Source: an uncultured Rhodobacterales bacterium (GTDB lineage Bacteria > Pseudomonadota > Alphaproteobacteria > Rhodobacterales > Rhodobacteraceae). From it: DNA of 53,966 nucleotides. The stretch covers positions 1 to 53,966 of the forward strand of contig CAYTUW010000001.1 of NCBI GenBank assembly GCA_964441435.1, in the 5' to 3' direction. A program made the position numbers and the translations under genes. The notes under the pieces are model-generated. The model did no database searches and was not told the DNA's origin. It saw only the letters and a program-made list of their open reading frames with translations. Positions 1 to 45,522 of this stretch are shown here, piece after piece. Position 1 is the first letter of the stretch. The number at the start of each line of letters is the position of its first letter.

Positions 1-1305
1 GTTGCCATGAATTTCATTGCCGGCCCCGTTGCCAGAGGCCCAATCATTGCCGCTGCCTGCGAACATGTCTTCGATTACGGTGCCAACCGCCACGGCGACA
101 TTGCCAATCAGGCCACCAACATCGGAAAAGCTGCCCTGCCGGATATCAATACGGTCATCGGTCGTATTATTGGTTAGATCCAGCGTATCTGTTCCGCCGT
201 GATCAAACAGGGTGAGCGAAATAGGGTTGAACTCCTTGACCCCGAGGTCCGGGCCGCCGTTGGCCGCATCAAAATAAACACCAAGGCTGTTGTTCAGCGT
301 AGTGTTGTTCCCATAAACCGTATCGCCATCGGTTGCGGTGCCCGCTGCCGCCGCGCCATACACATTCTGTATCGCCATGATATCGGCCAGCATGGGGGTG
401 ATAACATAAGCGAAATCAGCATCAGTGTTGGTATTTTCGTCCTGCGCAAAATAGGACATAACAGACTGCTGCCAACTATCGTTGGTAAAGGTGTTGTGAA
501 TGTCGTAGGTTGCGTTCCCGTTATAGGTGCCCTGATGGCCCAGTCCCAGCGCATGGCCGATTTCATGCAGGTAGGTCTGAAATCCGTAACCGCCGATTTC
601 GCCATCAGAAACATCAGACCAGTTATCCGGAATATTCACAGTGGCCTGGGTGATATACCCGCCGGAATAACTCCAGGATGCGTAGGCCCCGGAATTATCG
701 CTGTCCTCAAATGTGATATCCGCAATGCCGCTGGTCACGCTGAAGGTAAGATCCGCAACCATCGACCACCCTTCAAGCGCCCAGAGGGCCAACTTCTGCG
801 CACCCGCTGAAATTGCATTGATATTGACAGTCAGCGCATTGCTGAAACGTGTATCGAACTGAACGCTGGTGTAGTCGTAGGCCGCATCATATCCAGATTG
901 CAAAAAATCAGCCAGATCTTGCGTTGTGCCTTCGGTGACGTGTTCAACATGTAGCCGATATTCCCCGGTTCCGAGAAGTTGCGCATCAGCTTCGATATAG
1001 AAGGTGCCACTTTCTGTGGCGGTAAACCGCAAATGCGACGTGGCAGAACCAGCCAAATTGCTACCGTCAATGGCAATTTCCTGGCCGATTGAATTGTAAA
1101 GTCGCATATAGGGATCGCCCAGTTCCCCTAAAGAGAGCCCCCCGAGGATTCGGATGTTGTACGATTCACCCGCAACAAGACTGATCGCGACCCAGTCCTC
1201 ATCCAAGACGCTGGATATCTCTCCCCAGAAAGCATCCCAAGGCTGCATTACATAGGCTGTAGAGGCGTTTTCAGCGGCATCCGCTGTTTCAGTGATAACT
1301 GTCAT
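1..1305 (-). CDS. Serralysin-family (metzincin, M10B-like) secreted zinc metalloprotease with an N-terminal PPC-like beta domain and the start of C-terminal RTX repeats; 3' end cut by the window edge
   Basis: Hand translation of the minus strand from ATG 1305-1303 is open to base 1 (435 codons). It is missing from the ORF track because it has no stop in the window. Zinc motif HEIGHALGLGH at nt 535-567, Met-turn SVMSY shortly after, and glycine-rich nonapeptides GSGNDWASGNGAGNEIHGN at nt 1-57. Confidence 0.85.
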   Translation of the reverse strand, partial: MTVITETADAAENASTAYVMQPWDAFWGEISSVLDEDWVAISLVAGESYNIRILGGLSLGELGDPYMRLYNSIGQEIAIDGSNLAGSATSHLRFTATESGTFYIEADAQLLGTGEYRLHVEHVTEGTTQDLADFLQSGYDAAYDYTSVQFDTRFSNALTVNINAISAGAQKLALWALEGWSMVADLTFSVTSGIADITFEDSDNSGAYASWSYSGGYITQATVNIPDNWSDVSDGEIGGYGFQTYLHEIGHALGLGHQGTYNGNATYDIHNTFTNDSWQQSVMSYFAQDENTNTDADFAYVITPMLADIMAIQNVYGAAAAGTATDGDTVYGNNTTLNNSLGVYFDAANGGPDLGVKEFNPISLTLFDHGGTDTLDLTNNTTDDRIDIRQGSFSDVGGLIGNVAVAVGTVIEDMFAGSGNDWASGNGAGNEIHGN

Positions 1306-1333
1306 AATTAGTAGCCTGACAAATACTCATTCT

Positions 1334-1768
1334 CTAATTCACGATAGGTAAAGGTGTGTTTCGCACCAATCCTTGTGCAAATTGATTATAAATTTGCGGC
1401 GACAGTGTGGCATCCCGGACAGCGAATGCAGTTACAGGCCCCGATCGAAGCGGGGCTTCAGGCAAGCCCCAGTCGAGCCGTGCTTCGATCACCCGGCTGT
1501 TCATTTCCAGCACAACCGGACGAATGGTTAATGGATCACCCTGTGTAAAACCTGACAGATCGTCATGAACCACGGCGGCGGGATATGTCTCCTCGATCGC
1601 GGCCCGGATAGCCGCGCAAATCAGATCGCGGTGATAGTCGACTGCGGAACAATCAAGCACGATGCCGGTCTCATTCGCCGTTCCGCCCGAAGCCATGAAA
1701 AGCACGGCGATGAAACCAAGCGTTGCCGATTTTATCATGCCGACCAACCCTAGTGTTTTCGCAATCAT
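1334..1768 (-). CDS. Hypothetical small secreted protein (signal-peptide-like MIKSATLGFIAVLFMASGGTA)
   Basis: ORF 1334..1810. An internal Met at 1768 or 1738 is preferred because it removes the overlap with the upstream gene and exposes a hydrophobic signal-like segment. No recognisable family. Confidence 0.45.
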   Translation of the reverse strand: MIAKTLGLVGMIKSATLGFIAVLFMASGGTANETGIVLDCSAVDYHRDLICAAIRAAIEETYPAAVVHDDLSGFTQGDPLTIRPVVLEMNSRVIEARLDWGLPEAPLRSGPVTAFAVRDATLSPQIYNQFAQGLVRNTPLPIVN

Positions 1769-1790
1769 CGTTCGGATCGGTCCGCTACCC

Positions 1791-2450
1791 TTACAGATGG
1801 CGGCAGTCACTGTTCCATCGGGCTAGACCTGCCGCGTTAAAGGAACTCAGGTTATCATAGATTTCATAGTCCGCATGATAAAACTTGCGCAGCTCATCCC
1901 GCATATCATCGGGGACGACATCCGCTCCGCTGACTATGTTGCTTTTGTTCAGAAATGGCAGCTGCGCCTCAAGTCCGAGGCACCGCAAGACCTGTTCAAA
2001 GCCATTGGGCAGATCCTCAAATCGGATAAGGCAGTGCATTGCGATTTGACCAGAATCATCTTCGAAGCGCGCCCGCTGTAAGTGCCGATTCCCGTTGGGG
2101 CGGGTAATGTTCCAGTCATTATTCTGCCAGAACTCCCTGAAACTCATCCCTGGCGGCAATGGTGCCTGCACATCGTTCCCGGAGCGATATCTGAACCAGG
2201 AAGCAATCCAGTCTATCGGGTCACGCAGCACCCCAAACCTGAAGTACGTTACAGGGTCATTCCCGGCGGCGCTGAACAATGGTTGATATTCCCTAAGCGC
2301 ATCACGATAGGCAATGTGTTTGCGGGCTGGCGTTCCATTGTGCCTTATTTCGCAATGGTGCTGAAGGGCGGCCTCGATCGAGGTAGACGCCGCCTTGGTG
2401 TTGCTGATGAAGATAAACCGGTTTCGCAGACTGATAAGCATATTCACCAC
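1791..2450 (-). CDS. Sulfotransferase family protein (PAPS-dependent type)
   Basis: N-terminal FIFISNTKAASTSIE resembles the 5'-PSB loop (PKxGxTS type). VLRDPIDWIASWFRY resembles the 3'-PB RDPxxRxxS motif. Size of 219 aa is typical. Confidence 0.65.
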   Translation of the reverse strand: MVNMLISLRNRFIFISNTKAASTSIEAALQHHCEIRHNGTPARKHIAYRDALREYQPLFSAAGNDPVTYFRFGVLRDPIDWIASWFRYRSGNDVQAPLPPGMSFREFWQNNDWNITRPNGNRHLQRARFEDDSGQIAMHCLIRFEDLPNGFEQVLRCLGLEAQLPFLNKSNIVSGADVVPDDMRDELRKFYHADYEIYDNLSSFNAAGLARWNSDCRHL

Positions 2451-5400
2451 GCCTTTGCGTCTGATTTCACGCCTGCCTTTGGTAGCTCATCGTCAAGATG
2501 CAGTATCCGCCGCACCTCAGGGATATCCTGCCAGTGGGCCGAATGCTTCTGATCAAACGGGGGCGCACCGCCAGACCGGATCTGGCGAAGGTATTGGCGA
2601 TATTCCTCTGCATTGTTGAAATGCTGACCCCGGCGCACCTCCTCCTCCGCTTTTGTTCGATATTCGGCCGTGTATTTGAAATGTGCAAAAATCATCTCTT
2701 CCGTGGCAGTCCGGGCATTGGCCATATAGTGAAAACCGGCCGAAGGTTGCATTTCTGGCCGGTAGTTCAGGACTGCAATTTTCTGGGCGACAAAAGACTC
2801 CGGGCGGCTTTCCGGTATCATCCGGTGACGCAAGGCGCTGGTAAATGTCTCATCACTGGAAAAAGGGCCCCTGGACCATGGCAGATGCACCCAGGGCACC
2901 CGATCGGCAAAAGGAGCGCCATCAAAAGGCGTATTGTCAGAGAAATGGGCAGCATCCGTTTCGCCATTCGGATACATATCTAGCATCCGCACCCGTACAG
3001 CGTTGATTCCTCTGTTCTGTATTTGGACCAGGTGGTCCGGCAGGGCACGCTCAGGCCATCCTCGATAGACGAGGAATTCGTCCGCATCCGCAACCACGGA
3101 CCACTTTCCCCGGCGAAAGTGACCAAGCAACATCTGCTGCCATATCACGCCATAGTTTGATTTTCGATACTCTGTTTCAGCGGAAAACACGGCGACGTCC
3201 GGCTCTCGTTCCAGTATCTCAAGCGTTCCATCATCCGATCCGTTATCGGCAACAATGAACCCATCCACCCCCATGGCCCGGTAATGAGAAAGAAAGTGGC
3301 GCAGCATGAATTTTTCATTCCTCATGCAGGAAATTACAACGACCGGCAGATCGGCGACGGTGCGTAGGGTTTGTTCGCTGCTCACCAACGTCAACGCATT
3401 GGTATCAGTTCCCAGCACTGCGGGTGACTCCGTCGGCCAGATCATCATCGGGTGTAATCGGTCAGAGGTCAGGTTCTTCAACGCCGCTGCATGTCCTTTC
3501 GGGCTGTCCATATGGATCAGTTTTGTCGGGCTGCTGCGACCTGCTTCAAATCCGTTCACCCATGCGGGGACGGCCGTGCCTCTGGGATTGTTCCGCCGCT
3601 TGATCAGAACTGTATAATCTTCATCCGCTGGATAGATGCCCTGCGTTTCCAGTAATTCCCCGATGATTTTATCCTCTAGAAAAGACCGGCTAAGGATTTC
3701 ATGGCCGCCATAGCCCCTTACCGCATTCAGCACACCGGACATCGCACGGCGTGACAGGCTGTAACCTGATCCACCGTCAGCATAGGAAAGGAACGCGGAT
3801 GAGGCATCCAACTGGTGCCGCGCCCGATCCGTAGACGATTTTCTACAATGCCAGCCCCGGTCAAAAATACCTGATACGGAGCCAAGGATTCGGCCATAGT
3901 AGTCGAACTTGCGATAACTCTGGCTGTGGAAATAAAGTTCGGCATTCAGAAAACAATCATCGTCAACCTTCAGCAAGTAGGAATGTGTGGTATTCTCATA
4001 AACCCACTTAATTGCCGCCAGCGTTTTTTGCGGAAGCCCTTCGTAATCGTCAGGAACATCCAGGCAGACGACATCCTGAGGCAGGCCGCCATGCGTTTCT
4101 CCAGACCCGACAAAAATTACGTAAGGGATGCCCATATCCCGCAATGATTTCAGCCAGCTTCTGCGTAAAGCAGAAACCTGCGAGGAAAGGTTCGCACGGC
4201 ATGATGTCACCACCACGATGGTGTCAAACAAGCGCGCCTCTGGCGACAGTTTCTCGTCTGTGCATTGGGGGGAATCATTGCGGGATATTGATGGAAAGGT
4301 CGCTAGAGCAGATCTTGCCAACCGCAACGCTTCTCCCGACAGGGTGGCGCTGACATTTTCCAGTTTGCACAGCGCGTTAACCACTCCCGGTTCAGCGTAC
4401 TGGCACCCGCGCAATGTTCCATAGCGCCAGTCCAGTTCCGGCACGCCGGTGCCATTCTCTGGTGCCAAAAACCCCGGCAGCACCGACACAGATTGTTCCG
4501 CCGCAGCAAGGTGCCCCGAGCGCAACAATTCCGTAAACATCGTCAAAAGCAACGTCAGGCCCAGGCTGCGGCTTTCGATCGGCGCCAGGCATTGCAGCTT
4601 TTCAAGCAGTGGGGAGGGAACCATGAGTTTTCTGTGACCCGCCGCAGATGCCTTCAACACCTCGAGGATCTGACGACTGCATTCCAGCTGAAGCGGGTAA
4701 TGGGGGGATTTCGATGAAGAATTGTACATCTCATGCAGCTTCTTCTGCAGCAGATCCGCAGCGACCGTACCGCCTTTCTGCAAAAAGCCTGACGCGGCAG
4801 CCGCGCGGACGGCACCATCGGTAAGATTATCGCTATATTCATGTTGCCAGATGTCCTGCGCCCGCAACAATCGCTCTGTGCCATATGCCCCAAGCGAGCA
4901 AAGACCCTGCAGAGCACTGCGCTCTTCGTCCCGGTCTTCGTCGTGCCGCGCCTCTTCCAGGTGCTCAAACAGACGCCGGAACTGATCAAGCAGCGGATCA
5001 TTCAGATTCTGCGGCTTCGTTCTATCGCGGAGCGCAGCCCAGAATGAAGGTTGCAACGCACAGGCCCGCAACAACATCGGTCGGGCCGCATCAATAATAT
5101 CCGGCGGCAGAACGCCCTGAGCTTCTATAACAGCAGCGGCGGCGGTGGTCAGTTGCAGACAGGATATACGCCCCCATTGCGGGGCGGCCTCTCGCTGCAA
5201 GTAACCTGCAAATTCATGGATTACCCGCCCGATGTGTTCCGCATCATGGCTGGTGTGGTTTTCCAATACGGTGCGGATGAAATATGCAACACATGCTGTT
5301 TCCACCCACCCACCGGCATCATCCCGTTTCATATGGTGGAGCAGATCAGCACCCCCCTGCAAATCCCCCGCTATCAGCCTGAATGGCAGTGCCGTGGAAC

Positions 5401-6541
5401 GGCTCCAGTCATTGTTGGCAACGTCCCAAACCAAAGGCTGATTGCCGTCTCTGAGGATATCAGCAAGGTCATCAGCTCGTCCGCGCAAACAAAACTCACC
5501 TGCCAGTTGTGTTAGGAATGCTCGCGTCTGTAGATGGTCGAGCTGCATATCTGCGATAACATTGCGCACCCCTTCCGCAGGATCATACCCCGGGTTCATC
5601 CGGCCCCACTTTTCATAGGTGATACGCGCCAGAAGCGGGCGGTCAGCTTTTGGTGGTGTTGCCACCTGCCCTGCCGGTTCAAGAAACGCACGCAGACCCA
5701 GCTGGTCGGCGAGCCGACGTGCTGCGTCCTGCGCATCGGGCGACAGATCAGGCAACAACCTGGCATATCGCACATGTTCCAATAAGGGCACAACATCGGA
5801 CGCAGCCCGTTCCTGCAACATATAGGGCAGCTTCCGGTCGATTTCGGACAAGATTCGGCGCCGCGTCAAAACAAATGCCGCATGCTGCCGGCCGTCGCTG
5901 GATACGAGCTGAACGGAAACCCCATCGTGCTGGGTTTGTTCCGACATCCAGACACGTCCCGGCAAACGAACAGACATGCCCAATTCACGTTGGCCGGTAT
6001 CAAACTGGCGTTGCAGGTCGGGCAGCGGGTAAGGTTGTGAAACCAGACCGGGAACATGAAAGGTCAGGGTTTCGGCGTTTCGGTGGTGAACTGCACCTTC
6101 GATACGAAAATCAATCGGCCCCACATATCCGATCCGGGGTTTGCCGACATACGGGCCGGTGGGAGCCCGCCCGATGCGCGCAGATTCTTGCAACACACCG
6201 CCGCTGAACTGTACGAACCGGATTTTCGCCCTGCCAGGGTATCCACGGAAAATGCGCCGCAGCTTTGTTCCGTTCAGGGAAACCGTGATCCAGAACGGTC
6301 TGAAAACGACAGATATTGAAAGAACACCGGGCGCATTGGCAGCGGGAACCAGACGTTCGGTTTGCCAGGCACCATTCACTTTCTGGTTGAACCGCGCCAC
6401 CCGATCAACCGGATCAATCGTAAGCGCAAACAGAATGTCGTTTTGCAATGCATCGTAAAACCGGACCGTGGCGTGATTTGACCGCGTCAGATCAGCATCA
6501 CAGCGGAAGGTGCCAAACCAACCCGATGAAAATGACAACAT
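2444..6541 (-). CDS. 1365-aa multidomain glycosyltransferase: galectin-like N-terminal region, long helical middle, GT31-like (Galactosyl_T) domain, C-terminal GT2-like (Glyco_tranf_2_4 type) domain
   Basis: Uninterrupted 4.1-kb ORF. GT31-type motifs: VVVTSCRANLSSQVSALRRSW, DDYEGLPQKTLAAIKW, YLLKVDDDCFLN, YADGGSGYSLS (residues ~773-935, nt ~3617-4225). C-terminal VVVISCMRNEKFMLRHFLSHY...VADNGSDDGT...ADADEF (nt ~2672-3349). Confidence 0.8.
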   Translation of the reverse strand: MLSFSSGWFGTFRCDADLTRSNHATVRFYDALQNDILFALTIDPVDRVARFNQKVNGAWQTERLVPAANAPGVLSISVVFRPFWITVSLNGTKLRRIFRGYPGRAKIRFVQFSGGVLQESARIGRAPTGPYVGKPRIGYVGPIDFRIEGAVHHRNAETLTFHVPGLVSQPYPLPDLQRQFDTGQRELGMSVRLPGRVWMSEQTQHDGVSVQLVSSDGRQHAAFVLTRRRILSEIDRKLPYMLQERAASDVVPLLEHVRYARLLPDLSPDAQDAARRLADQLGLRAFLEPAGQVATPPKADRPLLARITYEKWGRMNPGYDPAEGVRNVIADMQLDHLQTRAFLTQLAGEFCLRGRADDLADILRDGNQPLVWDVANNDWSRSTALPFRLIAGDLQGGADLLHHMKRDDAGGWVETACVAYFIRTVLENHTSHDAEHIGRVIHEFAGYLQREAAPQWGRISCLQLTTAAAAVIEAQGVLPPDIIDAARPMLLRACALQPSFWAALRDRTKPQNLNDPLLDQFRRLFEHLEEARHDEDRDEERSALQGLCSLGAYGTERLLRAQDIWQHEYSDNLTDGAVRAAAASGFLQKGGTVAADLLQKKLHEMYNSSSKSPHYPLQLECSRQILEVLKASAAGHRKLMVPSPLLEKLQCLAPIESRSLGLTLLLTMFTELLRSGHLAAAEQSVSVLPGFLAPENGTGVPELDWRYGTLRGCQYAEPGVVNALCKLENVSATLSGEALRLARSALATFPSISRNDSPQCTDEKLSPEARLFDTIVVVTSCRANLSSQVSALRRSWLKSLRDMGIPYVIFVGSGETHGGLPQDVVCLDVPDDYEGLPQKTLAAIKWVYENTTHSYLLKVDDDCFLNAELYFHSQSYRKFDYYGRILGSVSGIFDRGWHCRKSSTDRARHQLDASSAFLSYADGGSGYSLSRRAMSGVLNAVRGYGGHEILSRSFLEDKIIGELLETQGIYPADEDYTVLIKRRNNPRGTAVPAWVNGFEAGRSSPTKLIHMDSPKGHAAALKNLTSDRLHPMMIWPTESPAVLGTDTNALTLVSSEQTLRTVADLPVVVISCMRNEKFMLRHFLSHYRAMGVDGFIVADNGSDDGTLEILEREPDVAVFSAETEYRKSNYGVIWQQMLLGHFRRGKWSVVADADEFLVYRGWPERALPDHLVQIQNRGINAVRVRMLDMYPNGETDAAHFSDNTPFDGAPFADRVPWVHLPWSRGPFSSDETFTSALRHRMIPESRPESFVAQKIAVLNYRPEMQPSAGFHYMANARTATEEMIFAHFKYTAEYRTKAEEEVRRGQHFNNAEEYRQYLRQIRSGGAPPFDQKHSAHWQDIPEVRRILHLDDELPKAGVKSDAKAW

Positions 6542-6591
6542 TGGAAACTACCCTTGTTCCCGCACATTATGAAGGATGCGTACCCGGACGG

Positions 6592-8412
6592 CTATTTCTT
6601 CTTACCCGTCGTATTTAATCCTACTTTTTGCAGGAAATCTTCTGACATTTCCTCCGTTGCTATCGACGTGTCGTTGAAGCCGTACCACCAGAACAGAATG
6701 CGCACTTGCAGGCAGAGCAGTATCCTGGTCAATTCGCTCGTGCCCGGTGCCTGAAACATTTCCCAGACGCCCCGTAGCATCAGCATCAGCCGCAAGCGAT
6801 TTTCAAGTAGCCCCCTCGAATCGAGTGATCTGCCAAGGTAGTTTTTCAGCAACCAGGGGTAGGATGTTGCGCTTTGGTCTTGTGCGGATTGCCTTGCCGT
6901 TGTCAGCGGATATTCAACCAGAAGGCCAGGCAAACCACGTGCGGCCAGAGCATAGCAGTAGGCTGCATTTTCAATATGGCCCCACCCTGGCCCAGCCGGC
7001 ACCTTTTCCAGCAGGTCGCGGCGGAAAAGCTTGCCCGATAGCGTGGGGTCCAGGGATGACAAGCCGTCCGCTTTGATCAGATGCACATCCTCCGATCCAT
7101 CAGAAACGTCCCGATGGCAAACACCCACTCCAAATTGGGCACCTTTTTCTTCTAACTGCCCTGCCAGGCGCGCAAATCCATCGGGATCGGGACGATCCCC
7201 GGCATTGATGAAAGCCACATATCGGCCCTCCGTCACTCTGATCGCCTTTTGCTGAGCCAGGGCCATGTCAAGCGGACCCGCCACGGAAATTACCGATTTG
7301 ATGCGATAGTCCGGGTGCTTTTCAATCGGCGTGGGGCTGATAATCACAGTTTCAAAATCAGGCAGATGCTGACGCGCGATTGCTGAAAGCGTTTTTTCAA
7401 GAGCTTCCTCGTTACCGGTTGCATACAGGATGAAACTGATCGGGGCGGGATTGCTGACTGATACCCCCCAGATCGCCGGGATAAAGGGGTCCTTGCCCGG
7501 GTTGAACGACAGCCCGTGGCGCAGGAAATAGTCACGGCAAGCGCGGTGGAACCGATGTTTTCGGTGTAAATCCTGAAGGGCAATATCCCGTTCATAGAGC
7601 AGCCTGCCAACCGATCGTTCAAATGCCTCGAATGCGTGCGAAAGACGTGGTGCTGCCTGGGAGTCGTCCTGTTGAAGCACCTGCCTTACCTGATCAAGCA
7701 CCTGAATTTGTTCGAAAACACGTTCGCCTCCGTCCGCGGTAATTTGTCCGGGTCTGCTACGTTGCCAACAGTAGAGTGGTTTTTGCACCCGCGCTATTCG
7801 CAGAGAGCGGCGTGCCAGTTTCAGAAATAAGACAAGGTCTTCGTAGGCCAGGTCTTCCTCAAATCTGACATCAGCGATCAGGCTTCTGCGGTAAAGCTTG
7901 TTCCAGGCGCTCGGCCAGTGGTCAATGACCTGGAGCCAGCTTTCAAACAAGATAAGTTCAACCTGTTCGCTCTGTTCATATTCCGGTTGGGAATGGAGAG
8001 CACTGTGACGGGTCACATGCGTATCTTCCATATCCATATATTCAAGCTCTACCGGACAACAGGCCCAGTCCGCCCCGGTTTCAACCAATGCGCTGCGCAG
8101 CGTCGATAGATAATCAACATGCACACGGTCATCTGAATCAACAAAGGCGACAAATTCGCCACGAGCCTGATCAAGGGCGATGTTCCGGGCTGAGGATAAC
8201 CCTCGGTTTTCCGTCTGGATCACGCGAAACCTGTCATCACGCGCCGCAACCCCCTGCGCGATCAGCGCACCATCGTCGGTAGAACCATCATCCACAACAA
8301 TCGCTTCGAAATCTTCAAAGGCCTGATCCTGTAAACTGCTCAGGCACCGCAAAATCCAGTCTGCAGTATTGTACATTGGCACAATCACTGAAATTTCCGG
8401 TGTCGCAGTCAT
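6592..8412 (-). CDS. Two-domain family 2 glycosyltransferase
   Basis: N-terminal ISVIVPMYNTADWILRCLSSLQDQAFEDFEAIVVDDGSTDDG and DSDD are classic GT2 features. A second GT2-like start, ISFILYATGNEEALEKTLSAIARQHLPDFETVII, lies near residue 335. Confidence 0.85.
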   Translation of the reverse strand: MTATPEISVIVPMYNTADWILRCLSSLQDQAFEDFEAIVVDDGSTDDGALIAQGVAARDDRFRVIQTENRGLSSARNIALDQARGEFVAFVDSDDRVHVDYLSTLRSALVETGADWACCPVELEYMDMEDTHVTRHSALHSQPEYEQSEQVELILFESWLQVIDHWPSAWNKLYRRSLIADVRFEEDLAYEDLVLFLKLARRSLRIARVQKPLYCWQRSRPGQITADGGERVFEQIQVLDQVRQVLQQDDSQAAPRLSHAFEAFERSVGRLLYERDIALQDLHRKHRFHRACRDYFLRHGLSFNPGKDPFIPAIWGVSVSNPAPISFILYATGNEEALEKTLSAIARQHLPDFETVIISPTPIEKHPDYRIKSVISVAGPLDMALAQQKAIRVTEGRYVAFINAGDRPDPDGFARLAGQLEEKGAQFGVGVCHRDVSDGSEDVHLIKADGLSSLDPTLSGKLFRRDLLEKVPAGPGWGHIENAAYCYALAARGLPGLLVEYPLTTARQSAQDQSATSYPWLLKNYLGRSLDSRGLLENRLRLMLMLRGVWEMFQAPGTSELTRILLCLQVRILFWWYGFNDTSIATEEMSEDFLQKVGLNTTGKKK

Positions 8413-8415
8413 GGC

Positions 8416-9918
8416 TCAGTCATGACTCGTCAAAGCACGGCGAGCTCGGGATGGGGCGGTCAGCTCTTCATAATGTCGGACCAACGCCTGAACATGTACT
8501 TCCGGTGTTGGCGGTGTCATGGCACCCTGCCAATATGCCGTCATGTCGGGGTCGGTTTGCGTGATCCACTTCAACCGCGCCAGAAGGGAAGCTGAGCTGC
8601 CTGCCTTGAAACGCCAGTCTTTATCACCAGACAATTCCTGCGCACCACCGCGATCGCTGGTCAATAAGGCGATCTTGCGGGCATGCATTTCAATCGCAAC
8701 CTGGGGGAGGTTATCTTCCCAGAGGACAGGCACGATCCCAAGTGTGACAGGTTGCAGAATATCATCCAGCATATCCGGTGAATAACCATCATGGTACACT
8801 ACGGATCCGAACTTTTCACGCAGCGCATGGATACGCCCCATGGTGTTCGGATCAGTGGCAGCGGCGGCTATAGCGATATTGAAACGTCCGGCCATCGAGT
8901 TGGGAAGCGCCTCAAGCGCATCCAGCAAGAAGAAGAAGCCCTTATCTTTTCGCATGTATCCCAGATAGCCGATTGTTATACGGCCATCCGGCCCGACCAG
9001 TGGTTTGGGTTTGATGGTGGCTGCGAATTTCCTTGCATGATCTGAACCGATGTATTCAGTCTTCGTTTTCTGGGTGTTGATGCCATATTGGTGGGCGATC
9101 TCTTCGACACGGCGGGAAACGCAGAGCACCCGGTCAACATGCAGGTTGATGCCCGAGATCATGGCCGTCCGGCGCCGTAAAAACCGTTTGGGGTCGGATG
9201 GGTGTACATGTTTAGGTGGTGCCCGGAACCGATGTAGAAAATGCCGACTTCGCCACACCCGAAGCGCAACCCTGAAGATTTGCGAAAACAGCGGTGACTG
9301 TGGCACAAGACCAGCCAGTTTCAACTTATATGCAAGCGCATGCGCCAACCGCAGGCTGGTCGGGCTTGGCTGCGGACCGATACAAGATTCACAATCCCGC
9401 CCCGCCTTGAAATCACTACAATGGGCGCGCTCTTGTTTCCACAAATTAACCTGGGGACATATCGGATAATAATTGTGCAGCGATAACAATACCTTGGTGT
9501 CGGGAAAATGACTGCTGAGTTCCAGAACTGACGCGGGCAACCCTTCGAGGTTGTTAAAATGCACAATATCGAACGGCCCGTTTCGGTGCAAAAAATCAAA
9601 AAATACCTTCTGCGTTTGTTCATGTGTCAGCTGGGCATCGCTGCCAAAGGAATGGTGCGCCGGGGCCAGCAGGCCCGAATTGACGATCTCAAAGCGGCGG
9701 TCCTGATCCTGGTCAGACCCATGTCGCAGCTTTTCCCACCGTGGCCGCCGCGAAAGGAAATCATAGGAAATGCCTGCAGAGATAAAATAGGGATCTATCC
9801 CCTTTGTCCGTCGCATGGCATCCATAAGATTGCGCTGATAGACCGTGACGCCGCCACCGCGCCGTTCACTATCGCGGTAATCAACCCAGTTATAGTAAAG
9901 AACACGTAAAGGACGCAT
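8416..9918 (-). CDS. GT-B fold glycosyltransferase (GT4-like)
   Basis: ORF 8416..9957. Start at ATG 9918 (MRPLRVLYYNW) is preferred because it clears the upstream Trm112 gene. C-terminal half has a GT4-like pattern (GIVPVLWEDNLPQVAIEMHARKIALLTSDRGGAQEL). Confidence 0.7.
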   Translation of the reverse strand: MRPLRVLYYNWVDYRDSERRGGGVTVYQRNLMDAMRRTKGIDPYFISAGISYDFLSRRPRWEKLRHGSDQDQDRRFEIVNSGLLAPAHHSFGSDAQLTHEQTQKVFFDFLHRNGPFDIVHFNNLEGLPASVLELSSHFPDTKVLLSLHNYYPICPQVNLWKQERAHCSDFKAGRDCESCIGPQPSPTSLRLAHALAYKLKLAGLVPQSPLFSQIFRVALRVWRSRHFLHRFRAPPKHVHPSDPKRFLRRRTAMISGINLHVDRVLCVSRRVEEIAHQYGINTQKTKTEYIGSDHARKFAATIKPKPLVGPDGRITIGYLGYMRKDKGFFFLLDALEALPNSMAGRFNIAIAAAATDPNTMGRIHALREKFGSVVYHDGYSPDMLDDILQPVTLGIVPVLWEDNLPQVAIEMHARKIALLTSDRGGAQELSGDKDWRFKAGSSASLLARLKWITQTDPDMTAYWQGAMTPPTPEVHVQALVRHYEELTAPSRARRALTSHD

Positions 9919-9931
9919 CAGTCGCGTTGAG

Positions 9932-10120
9932 CTATCCAAGTTTACGCGCCTCATCAATCAACATCATGGGAATCCCGTCACGGATCGGAAAGGCAAGCCT
10001 GGCGCGGTCACTGACAAGTTCCTGCGCTTCCGCGTCGTAGCGCAGATTAGCCAGTGTTTGTGGGCAAACCAGGATTTCCAGCATCTTTGGGTCAAATGGC
10101 GTATCGTTCTCACTACTCAT
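9932..10120 (-). CDS. Trm112 family protein (UPF0434/YcaR-like)
   Basis: 62 aa, with LEILVCP...L......L.......[12 protein letters not shown] typical of the family. Confidence 0.85.
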
Positions 10121-11852: not shown

Positions 11853-13265
11853 ATGACCAATACACCAATTCATGCCCTTCCATGTATCGAACCTTCTCAG
11901 GCTCAGAAACATGTCACTCACAACGAAGCCCTTCGACAGCTTGATGTCCTGACACAGCTTTCTGTTGATTCACGCACTGAAACGGCACCACCCGCGACGC
12001 CCGGCATCGGGGATCGCTATATTGTGGCGGCCCCCGCCACCGATGCGTTTGCAGGGCATGAGAACGACATCGCTGTTTATGAAGAAACAGGCTGGCGGTT
12101 TGTCACGCCACAGGAAGGCTGGACAGCGGTTGACAGGTCTCTGGGTGGACTACTCGTTTTTGGATCAGGCGGCTGGGTCGGACTGCAGCCGCCCGACCTT
12201 AACAACCTTGCTGCGGTCGGCATCAACACGACCGCCGATAGCGCCGGGCGACTGGCCGTTGCGGCTGATCGTAGCGTTTTCACCCATGACGGCGCCGACC
12301 ATCAGGTCGTCGTCAACAAATCATCGGCCACCGACACCGCAAGTCTGCTGTTTCAGAACAACTGGATCGGTCATGCGGAAATGGGACTGGCGGGAGAGAC
12401 GAATTTTTCAATCAAGGTCAGCGCGGACGGAACCAACTGGAACACGACCATGGTGGCTGATGCGGCAACCGGAACGGTGTCTTTCCCTAATGGGGGTGTA
12501 AGACGGGTGATGCCATCGGACACGACATGGTACGTCGATCCAATCGCAGGGTCGGACTCAAACGACGGGCTTTCCCCTGGTACCGGGGCGTTTGCTACAA
12601 TTCAGAAGGCCGTGGATACCATCATGACCATAGACGCGGGCGGGAATACCGCCACCATTCAACTGGCGGATGGGAATTACCCCCTGTCACAGCCCGTCGT
12701 GATCAACCAGGCCGTCCTCGGGGCATCGGCATTCAATATCACGGGTAATATTGCAAACCCTGATCAGGTCACCATCTCATCCCCTGAAGCCGTCTTTGAC
12801 ATGAAACAGACCGCCGTCACGGTCACGGGGGTTACCCTGTCGACAAGCGGCACAAACGAAAGCTGCTTTGAGCTTTGGGACAATTCTTTTCTATACTTTG
12901 GCAATCTACGGTTTGGAACGGCAACCCGGTCGCATGTTTACATCATTAATTCCACCGCCGTTGCCATTGCTGACTATGAAATCATCGACGGGGCGAAACG
13001 GCATTTTCAACTTGATCATCAGGGGTCTTTGCGCGCCTATGGCTATACGGTGACGTTAACAGGCACCCCGGCATTTCCTATTGGGTTCGTCGCGGCAAGC
13101 AACGCCTCAAGCGTCGGGATTTCAGGGATCACCTTCGCCGGAGCAGCGACCGGGCGCCGGTATGCGATCTACGGGGTCGCAATCGTGAATACAGGCGGGT
13201 CGGGCACGTCTTATTTCCCCGGCGATGTAAATGGCGTGACCGGCAGCAACGGAACCTATGCCTGA
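11853..13265 (+). CDS. DUF2793-domain protein with C-terminal right-handed beta-helix (tail-fibre/tail-spike-like)
   Basis: N-terminus LPCIEPSQAQKHVTHNEALRQLDVLTQLSV...GDRYIV matches my memory of DUF2793. Later WYVDPIAGSDSNDGLSPGTGAFATIQKAVD is the usual start of pectate-lyase-type beta-helix domains. Confidence 0.7.
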   Translation: MTNTPIHALPCIEPSQAQKHVTHNEALRQLDVLTQLSVDSRTETAPPATPGIGDRYIVAAPATDAFAGHENDIAVYEETGWRFVTPQEGWTAVDRSLGGLLVFGSGGWVGLQPPDLNNLAAVGINTTADSAGRLAVAADRSVFTHDGADHQVVVNKSSATDTASLLFQNNWIGHAEMGLAGETNFSIKVSADGTNWNTTMVADAATGTVSFPNGGVRRVMPSDTTWYVDPIAGSDSNDGLSPGTGAFATIQKAVDTIMTIDAGGNTATIQLADGNYPLSQPVVINQAVLGASAFNITGNIANPDQVTISSPEAVFDMKQTAVTVTGVTLSTSGTNESCFELWDNSFLYFGNLRFGTATRSHVYIINSTAVAIADYEIIDGAKRHFQLDHQGSLRAYGYTVTLTGTPAFPIGFVAASNASSVGISGITFAGAATGRRYAIYGVAIVNTGGSGTSYFPGDVNGVTGSNGTYA

Positions 13266-44811: not shown

Positions 44812-45522
44812 CTACGATTTGATATGAAAGATATCGACATAGCCAACCCGATCGCTGATCCACTGGCGGGAACGGATCGGCCGGTTTTGACCGGGCAAGC
44901 GCCAGTAGGAATTCAACCGTTCCTGGCCGTTCCCTATGCAGGTTTCGTCGAATCTGACGACAGATATGGCACGTTCTGCGATGGTAAACCGTTCCGTCCC
45001 GGCGGGGCGAAGCTGGCATGTCAGGCGCAGGGTTTCCAGTTGGGAGACGGAATTCAGATATCTGAAACTCTTGTCATAGCGCCCCTGCCCCGCGGCAAGC
45101 GCGCCCAGTACAGGCCCGGGCGTACTGGCAAAAAGATCGCCAGTAATCCCACGTGTTGAAACAATGACGCCGCCGCGCAGGGTTATGGCGATTTGGTCCT
45201 CGGTCCAGAAGGTCTGAAACCCATTGTTGGCCATAACTTCCGTCAGCATCGTCCAAGCCTGGCGCGTTTCGACAACCGCCACGATTGTCGGCGTGGTGAG
45301 CGCGTCAACCTGTTCGCTGGTAAAGGCGGTTGCAATGTCAAACCGGCCGGGTTGGGCGGCAGCGCTGCCGGTATTTTCCGGTGCTTTGACAGCCGCGCGA
45401 ATAGCGCTGGTGAGATCCCCAACAACAGAACCAGTTTCAGTTCCACCGGAGTTGCCACCGCTACATGCCGAAAAACCAATAAGCAGGACGAACATTATCG
45501 TTATCTTGAGGGCACTGGTCAT
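44812..45522 (-). CDS. YjbF/GfcB-family lipoprotein
   Basis: Lipobox FSAC. ITLRGGVIVSTRGITGDL and ...NSYWRLPGQNRPIRSRQWISD resemble YjbF family blocks. Overlaps the YjbH stop by 4 nt. Confidence 0.7.
   Translation of the reverse strand: MTSALKITIMFVLLIGFSACSGGNSGGTETGSVVGDLTSAIRAAVKAPENTGSAAAQPGRFDIATAFTSEQVDALTTPTIVAVVETRQAWTMLTEVMANNGFQTFWTEDQIAITLRGGVIVSTRGITGDLFASTPGPVLGALAAGQGRYDKSFRYLNSVSQLETLRLTCQLRPAGTERFTIAERAISVVRFDETCIGNGQERLNSYWRLPGQNRPIRSRQWISDRVGYVDIFHIKS

Follow-up and report, generated by a model that had tools for sequence, protein, structure and literature searches.

Positions 1 to 9918 of contig CAYTUW010000001.1, from an uncultured Rhodobacterales bacterium, probably constitute the glycosyltransferase/sulfotransferase half of a chromosomally integrated island for a KpsMTE-type sulfated surface polysaccharide of the biofilm-plasmid type. 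The block encodes three glycosyltransferases—a GT4-like enzyme, a double GT2 enzyme, and a 1365-aa multidomain fusion enzyme, to which we refer collectively as the trio—together with a sulfotransferase, a small exported protein, and a metalloprotease with RTX repeats. The window under study is the entire contig of 53,966 bp, which ends inside the protease gene, in the RTX repeats. An original prediction, made from the sequence, had raised the possibility that the type-I-secreted protease is modified in the cytoplasm by the glycosyltransferases and sulfotransferase encoded beside it, with no polysaccharide being exported: its gene calls, the tight co-directional layout, and the genomic linkage of the block withstood our analysis, while the missing exporter and the protein modification did not.

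Related loci and their polysaccharide exporter

When genomes were scanned with the GT4-like alignment, 162 stretches were returned that encode a relative, almost all of them from Rhodobacterales; the locus counts given throughout this report cover 79 loci retrieved through that scan, with 10-kb flanks, in which the reference proteins were placed by tblastn. Within 10 kb, the C-terminal half of the fusion enzyme was present in 60 of the 79 loci, the double GT2 in 56, a sulfotransferase of any type in 66, and all three kps-type exporter genes in 47, with a canonical order that reads rfbACDB, small GT2, kpsM, kpsE, kpsT, sulfotransferase, GT4, and a convergent giant glycosyltransferase. When plasmids were searched by tblastn, near-full-length homologs of the 1365-aa protein (34–38% identity over 75–98% of the query) were found on five plasmids of Roseobacteraceae, on which the identities amounted to 47–51% for the GT4-like enzyme, 33–40% for the double GT2, and 34–38% for the fusion, the C-terminal half of the latter reaching 47–50%. 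On four of these five plasmids the neighbours of the trio are annotated as a sulfotransferase, an ABC ATPase, a "sugar transporter", and an ABC permease, and three of those four also carry the rhamnose operon rfbCBDA; on the fifth, from Palleronia, about 15 kb separate the trio from the exporter genes. By its match (E = 5e-68) the "sugar transporter" is a member of the KpsE/BexC/CtrB family, and the best score of the permease was obtained with KpsM. The claim that this is a locus without export genes was accordingly not upheld in the relatives, where kpsM/kpsE/kpsT-type genes adjoin the same glycosyltransferases in those 47 loci and four plasmids.

Roseobacters depend for attachment on RepA-I "biofilm plasmids", at the core of which stand a rhamnose operon and a KpsMT-type exporter (Michael et al., 2016, PMC5030684); in that study, which does not name sulfotransferases, glycosyltransferases, or RTX proteins, the plasmid ATPase was grouped with the KpsT-type group F exporters and the plasmid was tied to biofilm formation (PMC5030684). 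For the sulfated product a precedent exists in the marine Vibrio sp. KMM 8419, whose structurally characterised sulfated capsule derives from kpsDMET, sulfotransferases, the rml operon, and yjbFGH (PMC11641403). The conserved kps neighbours of the trio, taken together with the biofilm-plasmid core and the Vibrio precedent, indicate that by gene content the glycosyltransferase/sulfotransferase block belongs to a known kind of polysaccharide locus.

Some particularities of the related loci may be recorded here. Five loci of Tropicimonas and Aliiruegeria (L029, L041, L045, L057, and L068) contain two tandem GT4-like paralogs followed by co-directional double GT2 and fusion genes; no other relatives were seen with the gene order of the window, and in L029 and L041 an RTX gene comes directly after the fusion. 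Thirty loci, among them L001 (6260-7027) and L003 (17055-17831), also encode a conserved hypothetical protein of ~250 aa, designated h255, beside the beginning of the giant glycosyltransferase; the window has no copy of it. In Tranquillimonas rosea (L040 5321-8312) an HlyB-type ABC protein and an HlyD-type adaptor are encoded directly upstream of the sulfotransferase and the GT4, in the position that kpsMTE takes in other loci, and both are 40% identical to their counterparts on the Sulfitobacter W027 plasmid. A type I system as the exporter of these loci was considered and rejected, HlyB/HlyD-type genes being adjacent in two loci only (L004 and L040).

Beyond the contig end

Pfam and NCBIfam scans of all six proteins of the block, from which the domain calls below also stem, revealed no exporter, priming transferase, or sugar-nucleotide gene in 1–9918. 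To that extent the original prediction of a block devoid of export and priming genes was right; the contig, however, is cut there, and a Bac_transf priming enzyme together with YjbF/YjbH-like proteins is encoded elsewhere in the window. Because the contig ends inside the protease gene, the absence of export genes to the left is not evidence; more generally, such an absence at a contig end, especially at one broken in RTX repeats, proves nothing.

A search with the protease retrieved its full-length form, P0002 (663 aa, 100% identical over the part within the window), and a relative, P0003, at 81% identity. The Logan contigs that carry P0002 (L085-L090) are 99.6% identical to the window and extend beyond position 1, so that the leftward extension that had been proposed as a check could be carried as far as the protease stop and, 30 nt past it, a convergent RTX gene that runs off the contig. 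The full form of that convergent gene is represented by P0123 (832 aa; the RTX832 family in what follows), which matches the fragment almost residue for residue.

The closest relative, locus L091, carries P0003 and thus a protease 81% identical to that of the window, along with an RTX protein 70–73% identical to P0123, in the order sulfotransferase -> protease -> <- RTX <- kpsT <- kpsE -> kpsM <- GlfT1-like GT2 <- ubiH; its kpsE matches TIGR01010 at E = 2e-60 and its kpsM was recognised at E = 2e-20. Locus L101, with a protease of 47% identity and with upstream glycosyltransferases unlike those of the window, has the order small gene -> protease -> 248-aa gene <- RTX832-family <- kpsT <- kpsE -> kpsM <- GT2. 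We infer from these arrangements that in the window's organism kpsMTE follows the convergent RTX gene, about 2.5 kb past the point where the contig stops, and that the seeming lack of export genes is most likely an artefact of that contig end. Flanking export genes, which the original prediction had named as grounds for giving it up, are thus present in the relatives, and for the window's own organism they are inferred by synteny only.

The gene block and its setting

The six co-directional minus-strand genes run from window position 9918 to position 1, where the original prediction had placed them, and the open reading frames (ORFs) bear out both the coordinates and all four junctions: a 3-nt gap between the GT4-like gene and the double GT2 gene, a 50-nt gap between the latter and the 1365-aa gene, a 7-nt overlap of the 1365-aa gene with the sulfotransferase gene, and a 28-nt gap between the small ORF and the protease gene. 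The GC content of the block is 0.525–0.557 as against about 0.54–0.61 across most of the remaining window, and the GC content at third codon positions (GC3) is also lower, both of which values fit an acquired island. Ordinary chromosome follows to the right, with genes for a Lon-N domain protein and a thioredoxin-TPR protein and with leuS, lptE, waaA, and lpxK.

Glycosyltransferases and sulfotransferase

The GT4-like (GT-B) glycosyltransferase (8416..9918, minus strand, 500 aa; Pfam Glyco_transf_4, Glyco_trans_1_4, and Glycos_transf_1) is the most conserved marker of the locus, with homologs 45–53% identical in the 162 matching Rhodobacterales genome stretches. Its longest ORF spans 8416-9957, and the start at 9918 is supported by the homolog alignment A1. 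In the same alignment four Cys residues (C154, C167, C176, and C179) are invariant within a conserved insertion, PICPQVNLW...C.DF..G..C..C, which quartet may be a candidate metal site.

The double GT2 glycosyltransferase (6592..8412, minus strand, 606 aa) matches Pfam Glycos_transf_2 in two stretches (E = 1.5e-39) and is homologous to the N-terminal part of the giant glycosyltransferases of ~2000 aa found in related loci, the double GT2 and the 1365-aa type being fused in 27 ORFs and separate in 30. The 1365-aa multidomain glycosyltransferase (2444..6541, minus strand; Pfam Galactosyl_T, E = 1e-10, and Glyco_tranf_2_4, E = 1e-24) consists, in this order, of a galectin-like N-terminal domain, a middle part of ~600 aa without matches, a GT31-like domain, and a GT-A domain (Glyco_tranf_2_4). 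Its homologs, at 29–38% identity, occur on the 5 plasmids and in about 60 genome loci; a word-indexed protein search, whose candidates were probably crowded by generic glycosyltransferases, gave no relative of this protein, and it was tblastn and the locus scans that gave more than 55 homologous ORFs in Rhodobacterales.

The GT31-like, beta-1,3-galactosyltransferase-type domain (3629..4078, minus strand; residues 822-971; Pfam Galactosyl_T, E = 1.1e-10) bears a DDD motif and has weak PDB matches to B3GALT6 and B3GALT5; K858 and D860-D861-D862 are invariant in the family alignment A3. The core of the GT-A domain (3038..3322, minus strand; residues 1074-1168; Pfam PF13704, Glyco_tranf_2_4, E = 1.4e-24) likewise contains the residues A1151, D1152, D1154, and E1155, invariant in A3, and the acidic motifs are kept in both catalytic domains of the window protein. 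The galectin-like carbohydrate-binding domain (6152..6484, minus strand; residues ~20-130) was recognised through the A3 family profile, which in an hmmsearch against the PDB matched galectin-9, -1, -8, and -3 (E = 8e-13 to 1e-6) over profile positions ~21-135; the window protein alone gave no Pfam galectin match. The window copy has A39 and D43 where the family has H39 and R43, while N52, W59, and E62 are retained, so that, judged by these residues, it appears to have lost two members of the sugar-binding triad. The joining of a galectin-like domain to a GT31 domain is known in plant and animal enzymes; to our knowledge there is no bacterial example, nor was the galectin-like N-terminal domain of this 1365-aa enzyme described in the literature that we searched. 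The three glycosyltransferase genes together contain at least five GT domains, and neither Wzx nor Wzy was detected by Pfam, NCBIfam, or the locus table in the block or in the tabulated related loci.

The sulfotransferase (1791..2450, minus strand, 216–219 aa) matches Pfam Sulfotransfer_2 (PF03567) over its whole length with 32.8 bits against a cut-off of 22; an alternative start, the ATG at 2441, would replace the 7-nt overlap by a 2-nt gap. Motifs for the binding of 3'-phosphoadenosine-5'-phosphosulfate (PAPS) are visible, SNTKAASTS for the 5'-phosphosulfate-binding (5'-PSB) and RDPIDWIAS for the 3'-phosphate-binding (3'-PB) element, and we accordingly designate the protein a predicted PAPS-dependent carbohydrate sulfotransferase of the Sulfotransfer_2 type, NodH-like in function. 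Homologs of this window-type sulfotransferase adjoin the giant glycosyltransferase in 16 of the 79 genome loci and on the Palleronia plasmid. Nothing informative came from PDB sequence searches in which the queries were the sulfotransferase, the profile of the GT4-like family, or the N-domain of P0123.

The protease and its small partner protein

The PPC-serralysin-RTX metalloprotease is represented in the window by the N-terminal 435 of its 663 aa (1..1305, minus strand; Pfam PPC, Peptidase_M10_C, and HemolysinCabind). The full-length protein begins with MTVITETADA and an N-terminal PPC domain, has no signal peptide, and contains HEIGHALGLGH at 247, an SVMSY Met-turn at 281, 11 GGxGxD repeats, and a C-terminal DFDFV; because of the missing signal peptide, the zinc motif, the Met-turn, the repeats, and the C-terminal motif, we consider it a predicted substrate of type I secretion. 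The window part matches NCBIfam Zn_serralysin at E = 6e-51 and the full-length protein scores 229 bits, under the curated cut-off of 500; we take the protein to represent a divergent branch of the serralysins (M10B) with an extra N-terminal PPC domain. A match to NCBIfam SapA is weak (E = 1e-35) and far under its cut-off.

Upstream of the protease gene lies a small gene (1334..1768, or 1334-1810, minus strand; 144 aa as called) that was recognised by its coding signal and its family, without a Pfam match. That the ORF is spurious was considered and rejected on account of the coding signal—the codon score is better in frame than in the shifted frames—and of the conserved family, an exhaustive HMMER search having found 31 remote homologs of 103–165 aa. 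In the alignment of that family (A2), C40, C51, W100, and P111 are invariant, and the proteins start with Sec-type signal peptides ending A|MS, one of which was hidden upstream of a truncated gene call; the mature protein would have about 120 aa. The possibility of a lipoprotein was also rejected, the invariant Cys lying about 15 residues past the predicted cleavage site and not within a lipobox. A Pfam match was found in none of the 28 members tested. With the alignment, AlphaFold2 (AF2) produced an alpha/beta model of two helices and five strands at a predicted local distance difference test (pLDDT) score of 86; the single-sequence model, at pLDDT 42, was unusable. Foldseek matched the former only weakly to PelC, TolB-N, and LptE (template-modelling score about 0.5, E about 0.02) and to no serralysin inhibitor.

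A member of the small family stands 23–167 nt upstream of a homologous protease gene, on the same strand, in L001, L051, L093, L096, L099, L100, and L101, the pairs in L001, L051, and L101 having been found by a hidden Markov model (HMM), and the paired proteases being about 28–47% identical to that of the window; with the latter included, the independent small-gene/protease pairs number eight. Their neighbours are the kps plasmid of Tropicibacter oceani in L001, a glycosyltransferase locus of a Cypionkella metagenome-assembled genome in L051, two sulfotransferases and an epimerase in L099, an epimerase in L100, and a glf/kps locus in L101, and every pair with enough flanking DNA adjoins polysaccharide genes; two protease homologs without the small gene, for their part, sit in housekeeping contexts. 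Locus L091 also lacks the small gene and has in its place a 279-nt gap without a convincing ORF (L091 808-1087, as compared with window 1334-1790). We read the small gene and the protease gene as a self-contained module, separate from the glycan genes. By analogy with known serralysin operons the small protein could be a periplasmic binder or inhibitor of the protease, for which assignment the chances seem to us to fall slightly short of even. Such a family directly upstream of PPC-serralysin genes was not described in the literature that we searched.

Two side observations concern the same genes. The two proteases that are 81% identical come from two related strains or species in the same metagenomes, of which one alone has the small gene. 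The 158-aa hypothetical protein beside a Thalassococcus protease proved not to be a homolog of the small protein.

Linkage of RTX proteins to the glycan locus

Of the 79 loci, 31 encode RTX-repeat proteins at a distance of up to 10 kb, a mixed set that comprises proteases, one fusion with a haem peroxidase, another with a lectin, and unknown types. Outside its RTX repeats P0123 has an N-domain with about seven sequence repeats of ~52 residues and with a weak match to a lactonase propeller in a relative; homologs of this domain, 28–33% identical, stand beside the glycosyltransferase cluster within 10 kb in 14 of the 79 loci, from at least nine genera. In three Roseovarius loci the RTX832-type gene is the convergent neighbour of the window-type sulfotransferase, without the protease module. 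A window-type protease occurs within 10 kb in five of the 79 genome loci and on two plasmids, and elsewhere on a third plasmid. By our own rough estimate, chance would account for less than one locus in the case of the propeller-like RTX family, if 1–2 copies per genome of ~4.5 Mb and a 20-kb window are assumed, and for about one in the case of the protease.

Among the 17 related loci with a window-type sulfotransferase, one also has the protease; this sulfotransferase follows the giant glycosyltransferase, not the protease. The linkage between RTX proteins and the glycan locus is real, and follows the exporter more than any set of glycosyltransferases. The genomic association of a secreted RTX/serralysin protein with a sulfated-glycan locus, as originally put forward, is recurrent across related loci. 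In the literature searched there was no description of kps-type loci in which the protease module and the propeller-like RTX family recur.

A metagenome scan with P0123 gave a single match, to the RTX repeats only. In Shimia abyssi (L060 7351-9825) an animal-haem-peroxidase domain (An_peroxidase, E = 3.5e-113) is fused to RTX repeats and encoded directly upstream of the GT4-like gene.

Proposed function of the island

In the mechanism that we propose, the trio would assemble the chain on a cytoplasmic lipid acceptor, the priming of which would fall to an enzyme whose gene lies elsewhere; the Sulfotransfer_2 enzyme, made in translational coupling with the last member of the trio, would sulfate the glycan from PAPS; and KpsMTE would export the finished chain. 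The protease and the propeller-like RTX protein would leave the cell through a type I system encoded elsewhere and fold with calcium outside, while the small protein, exported by Sec, would guard the periplasm as a protease-binding inhibitor, in the manner of AprI/Inh but with another fold. The RTX proteins would then presumably not be substrates of the glycan enzymes but would work outside the cell, on or within the layer of sulfated glycan that binds calcium, as components of the matrix or surface accompanied by a processing protease. A more ambitious version joins two propositions, namely that the calcium-binding PPC-serralysin and the propeller-like RTX protein belong to the capsule system as functional components and are retained on, or assemble with, the polyanionic sulfated glycan to give a protease-remodelled surface layer or biofilm matrix, and that the small protein founds a new class of periplasmic serralysin inhibitors, which conjunction we regard as somewhat unlikely to hold in full.

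Polysaccharide loci of this type underlie the "swim-or-stick" behaviour of roseobacters (PMC5030684), which are major colonisers of marine surfaces. If the RTX-glycan link is functional, it provides a testable model of a roseobacter surface or biofilm matrix made from a sulfated capsule and RTX exoproteins; the small-protein family, if a true inhibitor, would bring a new fold to the biology of protease inhibitors; and the galectin-GT31-GT-A enzyme has an unusual architecture for a bacterial polymerase, of possible interest for the production of sulfated polysaccharides. As leads we would single out the conserved pairing of small protein and protease, the propeller-like RTX family embedded in such loci, and the galectin-like domain.

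Alternative explanations

Modification of the protease by its neighbours, as first proposed, draws on the tight layout in one direction with no terminator-like site between sulfotransferase and protease, on the 12 N-x-S/T sequons and many Tyr residues of the protease, and on the cytoplasmic sulfation of RaxX by RaxST, known in Xanthomonas (PMC4892823). Both the families of enzymes present and their distribution oppose it, and for these reasons we find glycosylation or sulfation of the protease very improbable: no GT41 enzyme (HMW1C/NGT), heptosyltransferase (TibC/Aah), or oligosaccharyltransferase was detected by Pfam and NCBIfam in the six proteins, and the same glycosyltransferases adjoin kpsMTE in 47 loci and on four plasmids, while in L091 kpsMTE comes directly behind the RTX gene. 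Most of the related loci, moreover, hold the trio and sulfotransferases without a protease within 10 kb, which only five have; the window-type sulfotransferase is accompanied by it in one of 17; the gap in front of the protease widens to 279 nt in L091; and homologs of the protease occur also in unrelated housekeeping contexts.

Those housekeeping contexts, along with the missing small gene of L091, would be expected as well if the juxtaposition were meaningless and both the protease module and the propeller-like RTX gene were passengers in variable islands or plasmids for surface polysaccharides. RTX genes are numerous in roseobacters, the RTX proteins near these loci are heterogeneous (proteases, haem-peroxidase-RTX, lectin-RTX, and unknown types), their position and orientation vary among loci, and the block is an island of lower GC; yet the order protease, convergent RTX832-family gene, kpsT, kpsE, kpsM, GT2 is kept at a protease identity of 47%, and this despite different upstream glycosyltransferases, with one extra gene after the protease in L101. 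We therefore deem such a coincidence unlikely, the more so as the RTX832 N-domain is found in 14 loci and at least nine genera against a rough expectation below one locus, and as all small-gene/protease pairs with enough flank adjoin polysaccharide genes. The product could alternatively be the O-antigen of a lipopolysaccharide (LPS), synthesised through an ABC pathway of the Wzm/Wzt type with ligation by WaaL, instead of a capsule or free exopolysaccharide. The presence of waaA, lpxK, and lptE on the same contig would agree with that notion, as would the rhamnose operon and glf of related loci, which are typical of O-antigen loci, and the absence of a priming enzyme from the block, as in WecA-dependent O-antigen loci; in addition, the ABC ATPase of a relative scored best with the Wzt/RfbE galactan and TagH models. 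The relatives, however, encode a KpsE/BexC/CtrB-family protein between their ABC genes (E = 2e-60 and 5e-68), the permease has its best score with KpsM, and the plasmid ATPase falls among the KpsT-type group F exporters of a plasmid tied to biofilm (PMC5030684), so that an O-antigen seems to us quite improbable.

The reading that we prefer, an island for a KpsMTE-exported sulfated surface polysaccharide, has points to contend with in its turn. That the product is sulfated, and that it is a capsule rather than an O-antigen, is predicted from the genes; the adjacency of kpsMTE in the window's own organism is predicted through synteny with relatives; and about 30 related loci have no kpsMTE within 10 kb. 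Homologs of KpsD, KpsC, and KpsS were not identified, and none is annotated in the plasmid loci inspected, although no dedicated search for them was made; kdsA/kdsB are annotated on the Palleronia plasmid. The inhibitor role has to accommodate the lack of sequence or fold similarity to Inh/AprI and the absence of the gene from the closest relative. Finally, no terminator-like site was found between the sulfotransferase gene and the small gene/protease, so that co-transcription of the protease module with the glycan genes is possible; a candidate for a separate promoter of the module lies at 1413-1385.

Comparison with known systems

The RepA-I biofilm-plasmid loci resemble the window locus in that homologs of the trio stand beside a sulfotransferase and kpsT/kpsE/kpsM on four plasmids. 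The window locus, in contrast, is chromosomal, flanked by the Lon-N and thioredoxin genes and in a relative by ubiH; its GT4 gene precedes the other glycosyltransferase genes in the same direction, where the plasmids have it convergent; a rhamnose operon is not seen; and the glycosyltransferase/sulfotransferase genes are parted from the predicted exporter genes by the protease module and the propeller-like RTX gene. With the group 2/3 kps loci of E. coli and with Vibrio sp. KMM 8419 (PMC11641403) it shares cytoplasmic multidomain glycosyltransferases without Wzx/Wzy, KpsM/T/E-type export in the relatives, sulfotransferases in the locus, and yjbF/yjbH-like genes, whereas KpsD, KpsC, KpsS, and PAPS-synthesis genes were not seen near the window locus, the glycosyltransferase families are others, and secreted RTX proteins are embedded.

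Surface-glycan loci of alphaproteobacteria that are linked to RTX-type proteins acting on or binding the glycan outside the cell provide a further parallel. Exopolysaccharide loci with type-I-secreted calcium-binding proteins comprise those of Sinorhizobium meliloti (ExpE1 with ExpD1/D2) and Rhizobium leguminosarum (PrsDE with PlyA/PlyB and Rap), and in Caulobacter the RsaA S-layer is held on the O-antigen and a SapA protease is present. The window locus differs from these in its cargo, which combines a protease with an RTX protein of propeller-like type and in which no glycanase domain was found, and type I secretion genes are adjacent in just two of the loci examined here (L004 and L040).

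Serralysin operons with an adjacent gene for a periplasmic inhibitor are exemplified by aprA-aprI in Pseudomonas and prtA-inh in Serratia and Dickeya. Common to these and to the window module are a type-I-secreted zinc metalloprotease and an adjacent small Sec-exported protein of about 110–120 mature residues with a cysteine pair; in the window, however, the small protein is without a Pfam Inh match and its alpha/beta model contrasts with the eight-stranded beta-barrel of the inhibitors, the small gene is upstream, the protease has an N-terminal PPC domain, and no type I secretion genes are adjacent.

The modifying enzymes HMW1C/NGT, TibC/Aah, and RaxST are, like the sulfotransferase and glycosyltransferases of the window, encoded beside a secreted protein, RaxX being a type-I-secreted protein that is sulfated; the families present in the window, by contrast, are GT4-like, GT2, GT31-like, GT-A, and Sulfotransfer_2, all of which track the polysaccharide exporter and not the protease. 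As to the fusion enzyme, Arabidopsis GALT1 is a galactosyltransferase of the GT31 type with a galectin domain, and it and other plant and animal galectin-GT31 enzymes likewise combine these two domains in one polypeptide; the window enzyme is distinguished by being bacterial and cytoplasmic, by a spacer of ~600 aa, by a second, GT-A domain, and by the two missing residues of the sugar-binding triad.

Other features of the window

About 35 kb from the block there is a second polysaccharide-related gene group, consisting of a YjbF/GfcB-like gene at 44812-45522, a YjbH-like gene at 45519-47642, and the gene for a 205-aa priming phosphoglycosyltransferase of the Bac_transf family at 47759-48376, all on the minus strand. 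Two genes from the block, a 470-aa DUF2793 protein (11853-13265, plus strand) matches weakly to a surface-protein family of Leptospira; a "tail fiber domain" protein is encoded on the Tropicibacter plasmid near its glycosyltransferase locus, with no detectable homology to the DUF2793 protein of the window. At the right-hand end of the contig lies a gene for tRNA-Arg (CCT), at 53886-53962 on the minus strand.

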